Source of the DNA: Thermodesulfovibrionales bacterium
GTDB taxonomy: Bacteria > Nitrospirota > Thermodesulfovibrionia > Thermodesulfovibrionales > SM23-35
DNA: 64,000 nucleotides
Direction of reading: 5' to 3'
Assembly: GCA_963716185.1 (NCBI GenBank)
Contig: OY970295.1
Coordinates: 2,808,356-2,872,355 of the forward strand
Shown here: piece after piece, positions 24,838 through 62,483 of the stretch
Layout of the letters: every line of letters starts with the position of its first letter
Numbering within the stretch: the stretch's first letter is position 1
Made by a program: the position numbers and the translations under genes
Notes under the pieces: generated by a model
What the model was told of the DNA's origin: nothing
Seen by the model: the letters and a program-made list of their open reading frames with translations, nothing else
Databases searched by the model: none

Positions 24838-24913
24838 GGTCCCATCGTCTAGAGGCCTAGGACGTGGCCCTCTCAAGGCTAAAACACGGGTTCGAATCCC
24901 GTTGGGACCGCCA
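24838..24913 (+). tRNA. tRNA-Glu (anticodon CTC); integration target of the downstream islands
   Basis: Hand-folded cloverleaf: acceptor GGTCCCA/TGGGACC, D stem GTCT/GGAC, anticodon stem TGGCC/GGCTA with loop CTCTCAA, T arm ACGGG-TTCGAAT-CCCGT, encoded CCA. Confidence 0.9.
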
Positions 24914-24927: not shown

Positions 24928-26005
24928 TTATGCCTCATTATAGGCCGCTACATTTAAGGACTGTGCCCCTTTTTGTGCCCCCGACTTCATATCTAATACA
25001 GAAATAGCCTCTCTCAGGTTTTCAACTGAAAGATGAGCATATCTCTGAGTCATGCGGATATCTTTGTGTCCAAGCAATTTTGAGATTGTGTGAAGGTCAA
25101 CGCCTCTTTGTCTGAGATAACTCGCAAAAGTGTGTCTGAGGTCTGAGATCGTGGAAATGAAAGTTTTCTATTCCGGCAACTTCACACGCCTTTTTAAATA
25201 CCCGTTGAAGTTTAACTGGATATATTCTCTTACCGTTGTTGTGGAAGACGAAGTCTTCAATATCCTTTACTTTTTGCATTTCCCTGAATGTCTCAATTGC
25301 TTCAATCGTGAGCGGTAGCCCGATGCTCTCTTTGTTTTTCATTAGAGCGCCCTCGATTACCAAACACCGGGAAAAGAGATTTAGCCATGACCACTTCATG
25401 TTGAGAAGATTTGATTCTCTTAGACCTGTGTTAAGTGCGATTATCACTATAGATTTCAGCCATGCGGGGGCTGTCTTGTCATCGAGAGCATTAAACAGCC
25501 TGCCATATTCATCTTCACTGAGATACCGGACACGCTCATTTTTAACTTGCGGCATTTCGATTGAGTTTACAGGATTGTCCTTGATCCATTTCCATTTTTT
25601 AATGGCGACATTGAACATTCGTTTGAGAAGTCCCATTTCTTTTACTATTGTTGCGGGCATAATCCCCTTGGAATATCTATAACTCTCGTACTCTCCGATA
25701 AGTCTTTCAATGTCCTGTAACTGAGTGTCCTCTCCGAAGTAGGCTTCCAAGTGTTTAAAGATGCTTCTATCCCTTGCCTGATATTGTCTCCTTGAAGTGT
25801 ATTCGGCATCATATTTCTCAATCATCTCTTTTAGCGTTCTTCTTCGAGCCTCAATCCCAAACCATTCGCCTTCTGCAAGTTCATTTAAGACTTTTATCTC
25901 GATTTTTCTGGCAAGTTCCTTACTGCTTGTACCAGTTGACTTTCTTATTAATTTTCCTTGCCATTTAATCTTTATCCACCAGACTCGGCCCCTCTTTAAA
26001 AGCAT
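24928..26005 (-). pseudogene. tyrosine recombinase / phage-type integrase, frameshifted by a 7-bp tandem duplication
   Basis: The track ORF 25097..26005 ends ...HFHDLRPQTHFCELSQTKRR. Deleting one copy of gtctgag (25134-25140 / 25141-25147) restores HDLRHTFASYLRQRGVDLHTISKLLGHKDIRMTQRYAHL..., which carries the catalytic His and Tyr, down to a stop at 24928-24930. Confidence 0.85.
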
Positions 26006-37091: not shown

Positions 37092-37149
37092 CCTCTCAAG
37101 GCTAAAACACGGGTTCGAATCCCGTTGGGACCGCCAATAAAATCAATGA
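37092..37149 (+). repeat. att copy B: perfect 58-bp repeat of the tRNA-Glu 3' segment (island I / island II junction)
   Basis: cctctcaaggctaaaacacgggttcgaatcccgttgggaccgccaataaaatcaatga is identical to 24869-24926. Confidence 0.9.
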
Positions 37150-37716: not shown

Positions 37717-38965
37717 ATGAATAGGAAACAAGCACACATTCGGCATACTCCTAAATTAGGAGCTTTAGAAATCCTTAAATATATAGGGCCTGGATTTATT
37801 GTAACTGTCGGTTTTATAGATCCAGGAAATTGGGCTGCAAATGTAGCTGCCGGATCAATTTATGGATACAACCTTCTCTGGATGGTCACTCTCTCTACTA
37901 TCATGCTTATATTTTTACAGCATAATGCCGCACATCTGGGGATTGTTACCGGACTCTGCCTTGCTGAGGCTTCTACAAAATTCTTGGGTAAATGGATGAG
38001 CAGGGTATTCTTAGTCAGTGCAGTATTCGCAGCTATATCTACAGCTTTGGCAGAGATTCTTGGGGCTGCTATAGGGTTAAATATGTTATTCGGGATACCC
38101 CTTATTATCGGCTCATTTCTTACATCTATATTGGTCATCTGGATGCTCATTTCCAACAGTTATAGAAAATTAGAAAAATGGATTATTGGTTTTGTTGCAC
38201 TTATAGGCTTTCATTCATTATTGAATTAATTATCGTAAAATTCCAGTGGTATGAGGCTCTTAAGAACGGTTTTGTACCTTCTTTTCCTTTAGGCTCTATT
38301 CCAATTATCATGAGCGTTCTTGGAGCTATAGTAATGCCACATAACTTATTTTTGCATTCCGAAATCATCCAGAGTCGGCAATGGAATCTTCAAGATAAAC
38401 AGATTATAAGAAGGCAATCTAAGTTTGAATTTACAGATACACTCACTGCAATGGTTGCGGGATGGGCGATAAATAGCGCGATGATAATTGTAGCTGCATC
38501 AGTTTTTCATTCCCACGGGATAACCGTTACGGAACTGTCACAGGCGGAAGCAACTCTTAAACCACTTGCAGGAAATGCTTCTGCAATTATTTTTGCTCTC
38601 GCGTTAATCTTTGCAGGTTTTTCTTCATCAATTACAGCAGCACTGGCCGGTGGAAGCATTTACTCAGGCATTTTCCAAGAGCCCTTTGATATCTCTGATA
38701 ATCATTCACGCATAGGTATAATGTAACTACTTTGGGTGCTCTTCTTATTATTTTCTTCATCAGAGACCCTTTCCAGGGTCTTATCTGGAGCCAAATTGCT
38801 TTAAGCATTCAACTCCCGTGGACTATTTTCGCACTTATTTCCCTTACTTCGTCTTCCAAAGTCATGGACGACTTTTCCAATAGTAAAAGTAATAAATTAT
38901 CTCTTTGGTTCATCGCTGCTATAGTTTCTTTTTTGAATGTAATGCTGCTTATTCAGATAATCTAA
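37717..38965 (+). pseudogene. mntH: NRAMP-family divalent metal transporter, broken by two frameshifts
   Basis: Three consecutive track ORFs in different frames (37717-38229, 38178-38726, 38732-38965) together spell an NRAMP protein (GPGFIVTVGFIDPGNWAANVAAGS..., MPHNLFLHSEI...). Confidence 0.8.
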
Positions 38966-51341: not shown

Positions 51342-52489
51342 CCACTAGTGTAATGTCCCACTAATATCTTGACAATAATGGTTTATTGTGGTAAACTTTT
51401 TTTATGTGGGAAAAGGCAAACGCGTTGAAGATGACAAACGACCAGCGTGCGACATTGGAAGCTTGGAATCGGGCGAAGACCAGCCCTCAGCGAACGGTTC
51501 TACGGGCGCGCATTTGCCTGTTGGCGGCGGACGGCCTGTCGAATAACGCTATCGCCGCCCAACTGTCCACCTCCCGCCCGACAGTAATTCAATGGCGCAA
51601 ACGTTTTGAGGAGCACGGACCGATTGGATTGGCTGAGGACGCACCCCACGGCCCGAGTCCTCAGGCTCTTCCACTGGACCGAGTGAAGGCCATTATCGAG
51701 GCTACTCTCCACACGACCCCTCGCGATGCCACGCATTGGTCCGTGCGTTCGATGGCCAAGGCCCAGGGGGTCGGGAAGTCCACGGTGCAACGGATATGGG
51801 ACGCGCACGGTCTTCAACCCCATCGAATCGAGACATTCAAGTTGTCCAAGGACAAGCGGTTTGTCGAGAAACTGACGGATGTGGTTGGAGTATACCTGAA
51901 TCCTCCGGACAAGGCGGTGGTGCTGTGCGTCGACGAGAAAAGCCACGTTCAGGCATTGGACCGGACGCAGCCCGGCTTGCCGATGAAAAAGGGGCGATGC
52001 CGAACCATGACCCATGACTACAAACGCAACGGCACCACATGCCTATTCGCGGCATTGAACGTGCTGGAGGGTAAGGTCATTGGCTCCTGCTATCCGAGAC
52101 ATCGCAATATTGAATTTCGGAAGTTCCTGCGACAGATCGACGCAGCTGTGCCCGCAGAGTTGGCCATCCACATGATTTTGGACAACTATGGCACCCACAA
52201 CCACCCCAAGGTCAAAGCGTGGCTGGAAAAACATCCGCGTTTTCACCTTCATTTCACGCCGACCAGTTCATCGTGGTTGAACTTGGTGGAGAGATGGTTC
52301 GGAGAAATAACGCGGAAACGCATTCGGCGCGGAGTTTTCCGAAACGTCCCGGAACTCGTCGCGGCAATCGAAGATTTCATCCATATCAACAATGAGAATC
52401 CAAAGCCGTTCGTCTGGACGAAAAAGGTCGATGCTATATTGGAAAAGGTCGCTCATTGTAAAGCCGTTATAGGGACACTACACTAGTTG
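51342..52489 (+). mobile_element. IS630-family insertion sequence
   Basis: Terminal inverted repeats actagtgtaatgtccc (51344-51359) and gggacactacactagt (52472-52487), with 15/16 complementary. Single transposase ORF. Target duplication not resolved. Confidence 0.8.
51404..52486 (+). CDS. IS630-family DDE transposase
   Basis: 360 aa with an N-terminal HTH. VLCVDEKSHVQAL, DYKRNGTTCLFAAL, MILDNYGTHNHPKVKAWL, TPTSSSWLNLVERWF. Confidence 0.92.
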   Translation: MWEKANALKMTNDQRATLEAWNRAKTSPQRTVLRARICLLAADGLSNNAIAAQLSTSRPTVIQWRKRFEEHGPIGLAEDAPHGPSPQALPLDRVKAIIEATLHTTPRDATHWSVRSMAKAQGVGKSTVQRIWDAHGLQPHRIETFKLSKDKRFVEKLTDVVGVYLNPPDKAVVLCVDEKSHVQALDRTQPGLPMKKGRCRTMTHDYKRNGTTCLFAALNVLEGKVIGSCYPRHRNIEFRKFLRQIDAAVPAELAIHMILDNYGTHNHPKVKAWLEKHPRFHLHFTPTSSSWLNLVERWFGEITRKRIRRGVFRNVPELVAAIEDFIHINNENPKPFVWTKKVDAILEKVAHCKAVIGTLH

Positions 52490-55635: not shown

Positions 55636-55689
55636 CTCTCAAGGCTAAGACACTGGTTCGAATCCCGTTGGGACCGTCAAGCAAAATTC
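55636..55689 (+). repeat. att copy C: decayed repeat of the tRNA-Glu 3' segment (island II / III junction)
   Basis: ctctcaaggctaaGacacTggttcgaatcccgttgggaccgTca has 3 substitutions in the tRNA-derived part, and the tail has diverged. Confidence 0.8.
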
Positions 55690-58667: not shown

Positions 58668-58721
58668 CTCTCAAGGCTAAAACGCGGGTTCGAATCCCGT
58701 TGGGACCGCCAATAAAATCAA
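58668..58721 (+). repeat. att copy D: 54-bp repeat of the tRNA-Glu 3' segment, 1 mismatch (island III / IV junction)
   Basis: ctctcaaggctaaaacGcgggttcgaatcccgttgggaccgccaataaaatcaa. Confidence 0.88.
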
Positions 58722-58825
58722 GCACTTAGAGCTATTTTGCACTTTCTGTCACTTCAGAATGTAGCAGATTTGTAGCAAGCGCATTGAACTTCAGGAATTG
58801 TTTTATATTTTGTTATAATTAGTGT

Positions 58826-59044
58826 ATGAAGACTGTAACTTTAAAAGAAAAAGCCATAAATATGCTGGAGAGCTTGCCAGAAGATAAACTTGAATCTGCA
58901 ATAGATTATCTAAAGTTCCTGCAGGGCGATTACGACTTGTATGATGTTAATAAGAACCTTAAAGAAGCCCTCAGCGAGGTTAAGTTAATAAGAGAGGGAA
59001 AGATAAAGACTAAAACGCTCAAACAATTTCTGAATGAGCTATAA
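58826..59044 (+). CDS. putative antitoxin of the downstream RelE/HigB-like toxin
   Basis: 72 aa. Overlaps the toxin ATG (59034) by 11 nt. N-terminal MKTVTLKEKAINMLESLPEDKLESAIDYLKFL. Confidence 0.55.
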   Translation: MKTVTLKEKAINMLESLPEDKLESAIDYLKFLQGDYDLYDVNKNLKEALSEVKLIREGKIKTKTLKQFLNEL

Positions 59045-59142
59045 AATAATCCCTGCCCCTCGTTTCCAAAGAGATGTTAAATTCCTCAAAAAGAAATATC
59101 GAAATATCATCTCTGATCTTGATGAATTCAACATCATCCTTA

Positions 59143-61100
59143 CCCATCTTCAACACTTCGCCAAAAATAATTTAGGAATAACAATAAGTTACGAGGGGGG
59201 GAAATAGGCGTGGCACTATGAAATGATCTATTCTTATGTTTTATGAGCATCATCTTAATCAAACCGTACTCTTATCGTCCGTGCTCATAATTCTCACAGT
59301 TGGTGGAACAGCTACCCCCGCTGCCTGAAATGCCTTGCCGGCATCTCCCTTCAGTTCGCTCCTGAGAAGAACTTCCTTGCCGCCGGTCTGTATCCTGATT
59401 TCTTTCACTTCCTCAAGATCATTCATAAGGTCTGCCCATTCTACCTGCCATCCTCTTTGATCCATTCGTCTCTGCAATTCCTTGATAAGAAGGAGTGACA
59501 GGAAGCTGCAAAATACATGGCCCCGTATTGTCTCATCACATTTGTGGTATATCGGTCGGGTACTCAATATGCTCTTCATAGTACGGAATATCTGCTCCAC
59601 CATCCACAGTTGTTTGTATTGAAGCGCTACCTCACGGGATGGCAGATCCGAATTAGTCGTTAATACCCATTTGCCGTCATACCGGGATTCTTCCTTTATC
59701 TTCTCTTCGTCTATTTGAAACCTCGTCCCCGTAAGCTTGAGATATTTCCTGTATCCTTTATTGCCGACCAGTGCCTTCTCGCTCCGTTTGATTTTATCCT
59801 TTAAGGTGGCAATGATCGTCTCCCTGTCCAAGGCGTCTTTCTTGGCTTGGTCTTCATTGAGACAAATAATATATCGCCTGTCTTTGGCTATGACCTCTTT
59901 GACTTTCAGCGGCGACGGGGACTTGCTGTGCGTTCCTTTCGGATACACCTCCTCATAACGGCCACCTCGCCCCATGACTTCTTCTTTCACCTCTTTCTGC
60001 CGTCTCATCCTGACCCCTAAAATATATTGTATCCCTTTCGTCCTCTCTATCTCTTTGATCGTCTCTTTGCTGATCATTCCCCTATCGGCCACTATACAAA
60101 CCCTCTGTATCGCAAACCGGCTCCTTAATCGATCCATCACCGGCAGCAACGTCTTCACATCTGTCGTATTGCCGGGCCAAAGCTCACAGCATATCGGCCT
60201 GCCTTCATTGTCTATGATAATCCCTACGACCATCTGCTTCAGATCAGGCCGATGATCCTTTGAATGCCCATAGGCCCCGATCTCCTCCCCTCCGTTTCCC
60301 TCAAAATAGATGCTCGTCGTATCAAAAAACACCAGGGTGAGGTCTCTGAATAAACTCCTCTCCCTTTGAAATATCCCCTCTTCGATCAGGTCCTTTATGC
60401 ATCTCGGTGCAAACGGCGTCGCCCCTTTTTGTTCTTCCTCCGGCAGCTCTTCCCCAAGCCATGCCATCGCCCTGTACAAATGATGAAGGTCTATCTTCTC
60501 CGTCCCGGCAATCTTGTACTGCTCCTTCCACTTCTCCGCCGCCCGGTCAGAGCCCGATACGCTTAATCTGTGCAGCACAGTTAAGAAGATCGCTCGCTCT
60601 ACCGGAAACTGATACTTCCTCTCCCCCAACAACTCTTCGATCACACACTGTATCCCAGTATCTTTCCATAACCGTCCAAATACCATAGGTATACCGACTT
60701 TTGCATCTTCCACTGAGGGAACAACGCCTTTTTCATAGGAGTCAATGATTGCCAGTTTTTCGGAAAAGCGCACCCCAGACCGCAGGAGACTGTCGAGTTC
60801 CCCTGTTTCTTCCAACCTGTCAAGGCGTCCCAAGGTGCCGATAACCTTTTGCCGGACATGTCCCTTATCCCATATGCTCTTTACGATTTGAATATATTTT
60901 CTTGGACCGGATGGCTTTATCCTGATAAACATAGCATTAGTATTATAGGTATTTAAGCACGACATTTCAACCTAATAATGCTATCAACGTGGCACTATGT
61001 TTGACCCTTATTCTCATTTGCTTTTCTCGTAAGTAGGCTTAAATACTGGGTTTCCGTCTTTGAGGTGTCGCTTTTTTAGGGGGCAACTGTTGAAAATGAG
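59143..61100 (-). mobile_element. IS1634/IS4-type insertion sequence (1958 bp)
   Basis: Terminal inverted repeats cccatcttcaacacttcgcc (59143-59162) and gggcaactgttgaaaatgag (61081-61100), with 15/20 complementary. 5-bp direct target duplication CCTTA (59138-59142 and 61101-61105). Confidence 0.8.
59259..60965 (-). CDS. IS1634/IS4-family DDE transposase
   Basis: 568 aa. The N-terminus FIRIKPSGPRKYIQIVKSIWDKGHVRQKVIGTLGRLD is typical of IS1634-type enzymes. D...D...E blocks (FFDTTSIYF, IVADRGMIS, ...YKQLWMVEQIFRTMK). Confidence 0.8.
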   Translation of the reverse strand: MSCLNTYNTNAMFIRIKPSGPRKYIQIVKSIWDKGHVRQKVIGTLGRLDRLEETGELDSLLRSGVRFSEKLAIIDSYEKGVVPSVEDAKVGIPMVFGRLWKDTGIQCVIEELLGERKYQFPVERAIFLTVLHRLSVSGSDRAAEKWKEQYKIAGTEKIDLHHLYRAMAWLGEELPEEEQKGATPFAPRCIKDLIEEGIFQRERSLFRDLTLVFFDTTSIYFEGNGGEEIGAYGHSKDHRPDLKQMVVGIIIDNEGRPICCELWPGNTTDVKTLLPVMDRLRSRFAIQRVCIVADRGMISKETIKEIERTKGIQYILGVRMRRQKEVKEEVMGRGGRYEEVYPKGTHSKSPSPLKVKEVIAKDRRYIICLNEDQAKKDALDRETIIATLKDKIKRSEKALVGNKGYRKYLKLTGTRFQIDEEKIKEESRYDGKWVLTTNSDLPSREVALQYKQLWMVEQIFRTMKSILSTRPIYHKCDETIRGHVFCSFLSLLLIKELQRRMDQRGWQVEWADLMNDLEEVKEIRIQTGGKEVLLRSELKGDAGKAFQAAGVAVPPTVRIMSTDDKSTV

Positions 61101-61338
61101 CCTTAGTGATAATCCTTTTTATGGTGAAGCCATCCCGGGGTTAGAAGGAAAGGTATTTAAGGCGCGTCTTGCAAGTTCGGATATGAAAAGCGGGAAAAGT
61201 AAAGGCTATCGCATAATCTGTTACGCTCTGATAAAGGAAAACACCATCTACTTGCTTACTATCTATGATAAGGCATATAAAGAAAACATCTCGGCGGGAG
61301 AAATTAAAGAAATAATTTTAAAATATGGACTTTAAACC

Positions 61339-61428: not shown

Positions 61429-61617
61429 TTACCCTTCCGATTTCATTCTTGGTGCCTGCTGTTTCAGTCGTTCTGGCAGCCATACCTTTATGAGCGACTG
61501 GTAAGGCACATCTCGTTTATTTGCCTCAATGCGTATCGCTTCAAGGAGCGAGAGAGGTAGCCGCAAGGAAATGGATTGAGTAGAAGGCTTCAGATCCGGG
61601 AAACGGGCGCGAACCAT
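61429..61617 (-). CDS. brnA: BrnA-like (CopG/RHH) antitoxin, second copy; start uncertain
   Basis: ...FPDLKPSTQSISLRLPLSLLEAIRIEANKRDVPYQSLIKVWLPERL. Family-like sequence (KKLKAIPKFKSEAEERRFWETHDTTEYFD) continues upstream in frame to 61740, but with no canonical start codon. Confidence 0.55.
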   Translation of the reverse strand: MVRARFPDLKPSTQSISLRLPLSLLEAIRIEANKRDVPYQSLIKVWLPERLKQQAPRMKSEG

Positions 61618-61714
61618 CTTAGAGGAATCAAAATACTCGGTCGTATCATGTGTCTCCCAAAAACGGCGCTCTTCCGCCTCTGACTTAAACTTCGGGATTG
61701 CTTTTAATTTTTTG

Positions 61715-61864
61715 CTAATATAACTTCCTTTCTTTGGCGTTCATATTACGGGCGGATATAACCCGCACCAGGGTGCCAGCATGTCTCACTGTGAAAATGA
61801 CCATCAAGCGTCGACCGTTTGCCGTTTCTCCGAGAGCCCGATATCTCCGTTCGGATTCAAGGTC
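61715..61864 (-). pseudogene. C-terminal remnant of a BrnT (DUF497) toxin
   Basis: Hand translation: DLESERRYRALGETANGRRLMVIFTVRHAGTLVRVISARNMNAKERKLY*. The N-terminal half is missing, and the frame opens right after the vapC stop region. Confidence 0.55.
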
Positions 61865-61883
61865 TTAAGCAGACTTTACGGCG

Positions 61884-62306
61884 TTAGGATATCAAGTGAC
61901 TCTTCAGCTGCAATTTGCAAAGGCGACGGTCGGAAGAAACAAAAGTCACATTATCGCGCTTCAGGTTCAGGGCTATTGCAAGCTGAACACTGTCAACCGG
62001 TTTCATGTATCTTTTCAGAATAAGATCCTCGGCTTTGATAATGTCTTCTGCAGATACGTCGAGGATAGTAATATTAAGAGCACCGATATCCTGGTAGAAG
62101 AAAGTGCGTTGCTTCAAGAACTGTTCCTCTGTTGTGATCTTGTCGATTTCACAAAGCCTCTTCAGGTTGGAAATGATTTCAATAATAGTTATCGAAGATA
62201 TGAAGATAGGATCATCGGATTCTTCGAGTATCCGGGAGACCAATGCGGTCCCTTTCTCGGCCTGGTATCTTTTGAATAAAGCGCTTGTGTCTATGAAAAA
62301 GGGCAT
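61884..62306 (-). CDS. vapC: PIN-domain toxin VapC
   Basis: 140 aa. MPFFIDTSALFKRY (first acidic residue), later ISSITIIEI and ...FVSSDRRL. Confidence 0.8.
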   Translation of the reverse strand: MPFFIDTSALFKRYQAEKGTALVSRILEESDDPIFISSITIIEIISNLKRLCEIDKITTEEQFLKQRTFFYQDIGALNITILDVSAEDIIKAEDLILKRYMKPVDSVQLAIALNLKRDNVTFVSSDRRLCKLQLKSHLIS

Positions 62307-62309
62307 CAG

Positions 62310-62483
62310 CTATCGCTTTTCTCTTTCTTCAATAACTCTCCTGGAAAGAGAAATGCCGATGCCTGACAGACTCCGCTGTATGTCCTTCAAAGTAACATCT
62401 GTGTGGCCCTGTCTCTTCAGATGCCGGTGAAGCTTTGTGCTCATGCGAGGCTGACTCGGAGTTTTCGCAAGGGCTTTTGACAT
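62310..62483 (-). CDS. putative VapB-position antitoxin (57 aa, below the ORF-track cut-off)
   Basis: Hand translation: MSKALAKTPSQPRMSTKLHRHLKRQGHTDVTLKDIQRSLSGIGISLSRRVIEEREKR*. Strong SD (aaggaggtg) 8 nt upstream, and the stop lies 3 nt before the vapC ATG. Confidence 0.6.
   Translation of the reverse strand: MSKALAKTPSQPRMSTKLHRHLKRQGHTDVTLKDIQRSLSGIGISLSRRVIEEREKR

Follow-up and report, generated by a model that had tools for sequence, protein, structure and literature searches.

An IS1634-family element in a HigB2-like toxin gene of a Thermodesulfovibrionales bacterium, with the upstream antitoxin gene left whole

Why does an intact gene for a small antitoxin-like protein stand directly before a toxin gene that is present as two separate halves? 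The question is raised by a locus within 64,000 nucleotides of a Thermodesulfovibrionales bacterium genome (assembly GCA_963716185.1, contig OY970295.1, positions 2,808,356 to 2,872,355; this whole stretch is the window, and coordinates are counted from its first base unless a contig is named). Here a 72-amino-acid reading frame is followed by the two parts of a toxin gene, which are separated by a transposase gene. An initial annotation of this DNA had proposed that a RelE/HigB-like toxin was precisely interrupted by an insertion sequence (IS) of IS1634 type and that the ancestral gene could be rebuilt. Our analysis leads us, with high confidence, to a recent insertion of an IS1634-family element into a HigB2-like toxin gene, an event that left the antitoxin gene whole.

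The element, its family and its empty site

The element occupies 59143-61100 (1,958 bp), and its transposase gene runs antisense to the toxin-antitoxin operon. The target-site duplication CCTTA flanks it at 59138-59142 and at 61101-61105. Terminal inverted repeats of 20 bp were found at 59143-59162 (CCCATCTTCAACACTTCGCC, the end downstream of the transposase gene) and at 61081-61100 (GGGCAACTGTTGAAAATGAG, the end upstream of it); compared as CCCATCTTCAACACTTCGCC and CTCATTTTCAACAGTTGCCC (reverse complement), the two ends are alike at 15 of 20 positions. These imperfect repeats and the 5-bp duplication had both been described in the initial annotation, and both can be read directly in the sequence. 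Taken by itself the inverted repeat is within chance expectation, with its 14-nt core ranking 19th among 66 inverted pairs in the 2.5 kb searched, but it gains weight because it is located exactly at boundaries that were fixed independently. The element is present once in the window.

When the element and one copy of CCTTA are taken out, position 59142 is joined to 61106 and the sequence reads ...ATC CTT AGT GAT... in frame. The 5' part of the toxin gene (59034-59142, + strand) contributes codons 1-36 and one base, while the 3' part (61106-61335, + strand) supplies bases two and three of codon 37 together with codons 38-112 and the stop codon. Across the junction the rebuilt protein reads DLDEFNIIL followed by SDNPFYGEAIPG, and the product is 112 amino acids long; the proposed junction was exact, whereas the proposed length of about 113 residues was not. 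The rebuilt toxin matched 36 relatives, most of them exactly 112 amino acids long and the best 90% identical. Homologous toxins were examined across the junction both as protein and as DNA: the protein alignment is gapless at and around this point, and the element-free locus aligns with a related locus (L003) over 602 bp with zero gaps. No second toxin copy was found within the window. One further homologue, P0029 (81 amino acids, on a 60-kb ENA contig), is family-like for about 60 residues, then diverges and ends early, and looks like a frameshifted allele.

An uninterrupted allele was also sought in relatives. A search with the antitoxin located contig L095, in which an intact 112-amino-acid toxin gene (L095 1264-1602) follows an antitoxin, P0042, that is 97% identical to that of the window. 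This contig matches the window at 58668-59142 and at 61101-61336, with 92-95% nucleotide identity. The two alignments share exactly the five bases CCTTA, which occur singly in L095, and L095 is the empty site in a near relative. A metagenome scan with the rebuilt toxin gave three loci, none above 79% identity.

The transposase open reading frame (59259-60965, - strand, 568 amino acids), taken from the open reading frame list and from NCBIfam and Pfam matches, scored 393 bits against the NCBIfam model of the IS1634 family (NF033559, cutoff 100), covering model positions 1-481 of 483, which confirms the family named in the initial annotation. It also matched Pfam DDE_Tnp_1 with 68.9 bits. In an alignment of 66 distinct transposase relatives, D215, D294, E457 and K464 were kept in at least 97%, and the motif around the glutamate reads Y450-x2-L453-x3-E457-x6-K464, with leucine at the position that holds the arginine of YREK in IS4 proper. 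Members of the IS1634 family measure 1,500-2,000 bp, have ends of the pattern C-----YT, mostly lack the arginine of YREK and duplicate an AT-rich target of 5-6 bp (De Palmenaer et al. 2008, PMC2266710). The element resembles the family in its 1,958-bp length, its ends (which start CCCATCTT and CTCATTTT, in agreement with C-----YT), its 5-bp duplication, its long transposase and the replaced arginine; it differs from IS1634 and IS1549 themselves, whose reported long, variable duplications it lacks. We class it as a new member of the IS1634 family. A strong, near-consensus promoter-like sequence (TTGAAA-17-TATAAT, 60970..60942, - strand) is contained in the opening 12 codons of the transposase frame as annotated. 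Because this site falls inside the annotated start, the actual start is probably the ATG at 60932 (MFIRIKP...), about 10 nt past the -10 box, and the arrangement suggests a nearly leaderless transposase mRNA.

Copies of the element were compared in other genomes and samples. A contig from another sample (L001, Logan SRR27973869) matches the element with 100% identity along exactly 1,958 bp, equivalent to window 61100..59143, and its flanks depart from the window at the first base outside each end (its left flank is 3 bp). A second contig, L002, consists of the element and two bases. Relatives were found mostly in metagenome-assembled genomes of Nitrospirota and Planctomycetota, and the closest genome copy found shares 81% protein and 76% DNA identity with the element. 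L005, in a Nitrospirota genome (76% DNA identity), has the same very ends and a TATTA duplication at both sides. In a single Nitrospiraceae genome, four further copies (L006-L009) all show the termini CCCATCTTCTACAGT / ACTGTAGAAGATGGG, and their 5-bp duplications are CTTGG, TCAAA, TTATA and TGTGA, respectively. These copies were checked for differing termini, and the same termini were found in L001 and in L005-L009; CCCATCTTC-type ends with a 5-bp target duplication are traits of this element group, as seen in five related copies. The transposase reading frame is intact and a 100% identical copy occupies a different site in a second sample, which are indirect signs that the element may be able to transpose. 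The copy in L001 abuts an open frame of at least 289 amino acids (L001 1962-2828) that has no Pfam match, is rich in glycine, asparagine and tyrosine and resembles an outer-membrane protein; as the frame is open right from where the element ends, this copy may also interrupt a gene.

The toxin and its antitoxin

With the gene rebuilt, the type of toxin could be addressed. The toxin family profile, searched against the PDB, matched Vibrio cholerae HigB-2 chains with E = 1e-14, and E. coli RelE weakly with E = 0.03. An AlphaFold2 model of the rebuilt toxin (predicted local distance difference test, pLDDT, 91.2; predicted template modelling score, pTM, 0.85) contains beta1 (4-7), alpha1 (9-18), alpha2 (25-38), beta2 (53-59), beta3 (70-78), beta4 (83-91) and alpha3 (100-109). 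The nine top Foldseek matches of this model in the PDB were all HigB2 chains (template modelling scores 0.68-0.72), followed by RelE, YoeB and YafQ. Residues R57, R72, Y90 and K92, which are invariant or nearly so across the toxin family, align (HMMER) to R51, R64, Y82 and K84 of V. cholerae HigB2 (VcHigB2). These four residues are required for VcHigB2 activity (Hadzi et al., PMC5416850), and the VcHigB2 active site has been described as almost identical to that of RelE (PMC5416850). We assign the toxin to the RelE/ParE superfamily and, within it, to the HigB2-like group (PF06296); the RelE/HigB-like toxin of the initial annotation is borne out and narrowed by these profile and fold matches. 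Because the active-site residues of VcHigB2 are all kept, the ancestral gene looks like one for a working ribosome-dependent mRNA endonuclease.

Among characterized systems the closest match in sequence and fold is VcHigB2 (PDB 5ja8, 5ja9, 5jaa, 8a0x), which has the same beta1-alpha1-alpha2-beta2-beta3-beta4-alpha3 layout and the four active-site residues, although identity in the structural alignments is only 22-29%. E. coli RelBE (RelE; PDB 4fxe, 4v7j) shares the superfamily and the antitoxin-first gene order; it differs in that its toxin is a weak sequence match, as given above, and in that the antitoxin here has no RelB match.

The antitoxin gene (58826-59044, + strand) is intact, as had been proposed, encodes 72 amino acids and has its last 11 nt in common with the start of the toxin gene. 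Before it, at 58812-58817, a TATAAT box forms part of the block ATTTTGTTATAATT, which is conserved in the related loci L003 and L004. The pairing itself is conserved: in all ten related loci examined (L003, L004, L085, L088-L093 and L095), which have differing genomic neighbourhoods, a 72-amino-acid gene comes first and overlaps by 11 nt a toxin gene of 112 or 116 codons. Homologues of the antitoxin form 48 clusters, nearly all of 72 amino acids; one database entry (P0043) is 100% identical to the window antitoxin, and the latter agrees with six related proteins at all 42 columns in which these do not vary. Two co-oriented, overlapping small genes that stay paired across unrelated contexts identify the locus, by its organization, as a type II toxin-antitoxin module.

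No Pfam, NCBIfam or PDB family match was found for the antitoxin, nor any helix-turn-helix or HigA match. Of 34 members, 5 matched DUF2281 (Pfam) weakly, and a single chance-level match came from the profile search of the PDB. The predicted structure is helical and of low confidence (pLDDT 58.5); low-confidence models are common for antitoxins that fold on binding. On these comparisons the antitoxin appears to belong to no described family. Membership of the higBA operon family was considered and rejected, given that the antitoxin gene comes first and its product is not of HigA type. In V. cholerae the toxin gene leads the operon, and HigA2, a protein with a helix-turn-helix domain and a disordered N-terminus, is encoded after it (PMC5416850), whereas here a 72-amino-acid antitoxin without a detectable helix-turn-helix comes first. 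The module is predicted to function like a RelBE- or HigBA2-type system and to stand outside the higBA operon family. A mosaic pattern was observed within the operon: the toxin of L003 is near that of the window (synonymous divergence, pS, 0.19), whereas its antitoxin is distant (pS 0.69) and is similar to the antitoxins of L004 and L085, a pattern suggestive of recombination within the operon (L003 224-770 against window 58826-59142 and 61106-61335).

Fate of the locus after the insertion

From these results the following course of events can be proposed. The locus would have begun as a two-gene type II operon in which a 72-amino-acid antitoxin gene overlapped, by 11 nt, the gene of a 112-amino-acid HigB2-like toxin. 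The 1,958-bp element would have transposed into CCTTA at toxin codons 35-37 and duplicated these five bases. The toxin frame would thereby have been cut after 36 native residues, leaving the 76 C-terminal codons, with all active-site residues, 1,963 bp downstream. An active toxin would most probably no longer be made, and the antitoxin gene and its promoter region would have stayed untouched.

The insertion point follows codon 36, late in helix alpha2, and splits beta1-alpha1-alpha2 from the catalytic sheet: the 5' part encodes beta1, alpha1 and most of alpha2, the 3' part beta2-beta4 and alpha3 with all four active-site equivalents. The present toxin frame continues into the element and stops at 59207, so that it encodes 57 amino acids, 36 native and 21 foreign. 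Around 61000-61100 a scan of the + strand gave no promoter-like site; inside the element it gave three terminator-like sites on that strand. Since the fold is split and no promoter is detectable before the 3' part, we infer that toxicity was lost; the antitoxin is probably still expressed. The 'disarmed' toxin and 'orphan' antitoxin of the initial annotation are in this sense well founded.

Both toxin halves are free of stop codons and frameshifts. The ratios of nonsynonymous to synonymous divergence (pN/pS) against L095, which rest on small counts, were 0.23 for the toxin (intact pairs, 0.21-0.25) and 0.08 for the antitoxin. The insertion is probably young relative to the approximately 14% synonymous divergence from L095, because the duplication is perfect, an identical copy exists in L001, the halves have not decayed and the toxin pN/pS lies in the range of intact pairs.

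The window is not the sole case of a damaged toxin gene in this group. The same antitoxin, P0042, is encoded on three contigs (L094, L095 and L096), of which L095 has the intact toxin described above. In L094 (GCA_017973895.1, 1618-1860) codon 81 of the toxin has changed from GAA to TAA (nonsense change E81*), and in L096 (258-356) 402 bp are absent relative to L095, so that toxin codons 12-112 are gone and the antitoxin adjoins the native GH130-family gene located downstream. Among four alleles with antitoxins at least 97% identical, one toxin is thus intact, one carries a nonsense codon, one is deleted and one, that of the window, bears the element. We read these alleles as toxin loss with the antitoxin kept, recurring in the clade by three different routes.

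Under neutral decay the toxin is expected to go first, since a cell that lost the antitoxin before it would die. Another explanation is that loss of the toxin was selected and not merely neutral, and that the antitoxin is kept against an incoming toxin (anti-addiction) or for a regulatory role. The inactivation of three of four close toxin alleles beside antitoxins at least 97% identical would fit such selection, as would the low antitoxin pN/pS (0.08) and the position of the locus next to a tRNA-Glu integration hotspot with three tandem inserts; anti-addiction by chromosomal toxin-antitoxin systems is moreover an established concept (PMC12548467). Set against this, the comparison covers four alleles, three of them from metagenome contigs, toxin-first loss is equally predicted by neutral decay, the window holds no second toxin copy, and if the inactivations are recent the low antitoxin pN/pS mostly predates the loss of the toxin. 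The recurrent loss is compatible with both neutral decay and anti-addiction retention, and we give selected loss a fairly low probability. Its fuller form, in which the HigB2-like toxin was repeatedly and independently removed in this Thermodesulfovibrionales lineage and the 72-amino-acid antitoxin was actively kept as a working gene, likewise seems to us doubtful. If it were true, the orphan antitoxin would be, for example, an immunity factor against the same toxin on elements entering the adjacent tRNA-Glu hotspot, and not a leftover.

Several observations count against the account of a recent insertion that abolished a HigB2-like toxin and spared its antitoxin. The rebuilt toxin scores 24.5 bits against Pfam PF06296, just below the cutoff of 27; this family is matched by 21 of 22 aligned toxin homologues at E <= 0.01 (best 4.3e-11). 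An uninterrupted allele of identical sequence was not found among the relatives searched, the closest being about 93% identical. The role proposed for the antitoxin is drawn from its conserved pairing, with no family match and a poor model, and the pN/pS counts, as said, are small. Lastly, the end of the element carries an ATG (61096-61098) from which the frame runs on into the 3' toxin part (MSLSDNPFY...), and a 79-amino-acid fragment with all four active-site residues could in principle be translated from read-through RNA.

This last point leads to the view that the toxin was not fully disarmed: transcription from the antitoxin promoter, or from an outward promoter in the end of the element, would extend to the 3' part and yield, from the start at 61096, a truncated protein of M-S-L and residues 37-112 that is partly active and held in check by the antitoxin. 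The motif AGGGGG at 61078-61083 resembles a ribosome-binding site and the four active-site equivalents all fall within the fragment, and strong purifying selection on the antitoxin would suit a toxin that still has to be restrained. However, the gap of 12 nt between this motif and the ATG is long, and the fragment lacks beta1, alpha1 and alpha2, a third of the protein and core in the model, so an active product is unlikely. The missing promoter-like site and the three terminator-like sites noted above also speak against this view, and sister alleles keep the antitoxin despite a nonsense codon or a deletion in the toxin, from which it follows that retention of the antitoxin needs no live toxin. 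We consider a partly active toxin quite improbable. An assembly artefact, with a repeated element misplaced into an intact gene, is hardly credible: the element is indeed repeated in metagenomes (alone in L002, with another flank in L001), a situation prone to misassembly, but a misjoin would not yield a perfect 5-bp duplication whose removal restores a gapless 112-amino-acid frame, nor a duplication length that matches five related insertions.

Genomic setting and meaning of the locus

A pattern search identified, 115 nt upstream of the toxin-antitoxin locus, a 44-nt copy of the 3' portion of tRNA-Glu(CTC) (58668-58711, + strand) that extends from the anticodon loop through CCA. It is the last of three such repeats. 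The full tRNA-Glu(CTC) gene is at 24838-24913, and its 3' 44-46 nt, including about 10 nt past CCA, recur three times downstream; the 26-nt cores at 37111-37136, 55654-55679 and 58686-58711 have 0, 2 and 0 mismatches, respectively, and no such core is expected by chance. A tyrosine-recombinase (integrase) gene stands beside the full tRNA gene (25097-26005, - strand). The arrangement resembles a tandem series of three inserts (about 12.2, 18.5 and 3.0 kb) in one tRNA-Glu attachment site, and the copy at 58668-58711 looks like an attachment-site remnant that forms the context of the toxin-antitoxin locus and no part of it. Homology of the window to L095, L094 and L004 starts at this tRNA-Glu fragment, which is likewise upstream of the loci in L004 and L095. 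No RNA gene adjoining the locus was found with Rfam and ARAGORN. For the ClpC protein encoded in the window, the closest named homologues (91% identity) belong to Thermodesulfovibrionales / Nitrospirota.

Other features of the window were recorded alongside. Directly downstream is a decayed brnTA pair (61429-61880, - strand), in which a BrnT-type toxin is reduced after stop codons to its C-terminal 50 or so codons (DLESERRYRALGETANGRRLMVIFTVRHAGTLVRVISARNMNAKERKLY) and the neighbouring BrnA/CopG-type antitoxin (Pfam, 65 bits) has no standard start codon for its first 30 or so residues. It is followed by an apparently intact vapBC-like pair (61884-62483, - strand) of a 140-amino-acid PIN-domain protein and a 57-amino-acid upstream partner, so that three toxin-antitoxin loci stand side by side, two of them with dead toxins. 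A second, unrelated transposase gene (51404-52486, + strand), with Pfam DDE_3 and helix-turn-helix domains and IS630/Tc1-like, is found inside the second tRNA-Glu-linked insert. Just past the first tRNA-fragment repeat, two overlapping reading frames of 170 and 182 amino acids (37717-38726, + strand) may represent a frameshifted gene; the match of the first one to the Nramp metal-transporter model is confined to the initial third of that model.

The kind of event described here is well known. Pedersen and Gerdes reportedly described in 1999 that chromosomal hok/sok loci of E. coli K-12 are inactivated by insertion elements. Those loci are, like the present one, chromosomal toxin-antitoxin loci naturally inactivated by insertion sequences; they differ in being of type I, with an RNA antitoxin, and in having insertions near the reading frames and not precisely inside them. 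What is new is modest, namely the sequence of the element and the family of the antitoxin.

Current understanding is unchanged by this locus, which offers a tidy example of its kind. L095 and the window form an exact before-and-after pair for an insertion of the IS1634 family, in which ends and target choice are poorly conserved and have received little study beyond Mycoplasma and archaea; its Nitrospirota branch now has defined termini and a defined 5-bp duplication. Annotators should treat the two toxin halves as a single pseudogene. The insertion, nonsense and deletion alleles make up a small natural series in which the toxin appears to be lost first, as theory predicts. The comparison also brings to light a conserved, antitoxin-first pairing of a HigB2-type toxin with an apparently undescribed 72-amino-acid antitoxin, and may serve as a starting point for work on that antitoxin.

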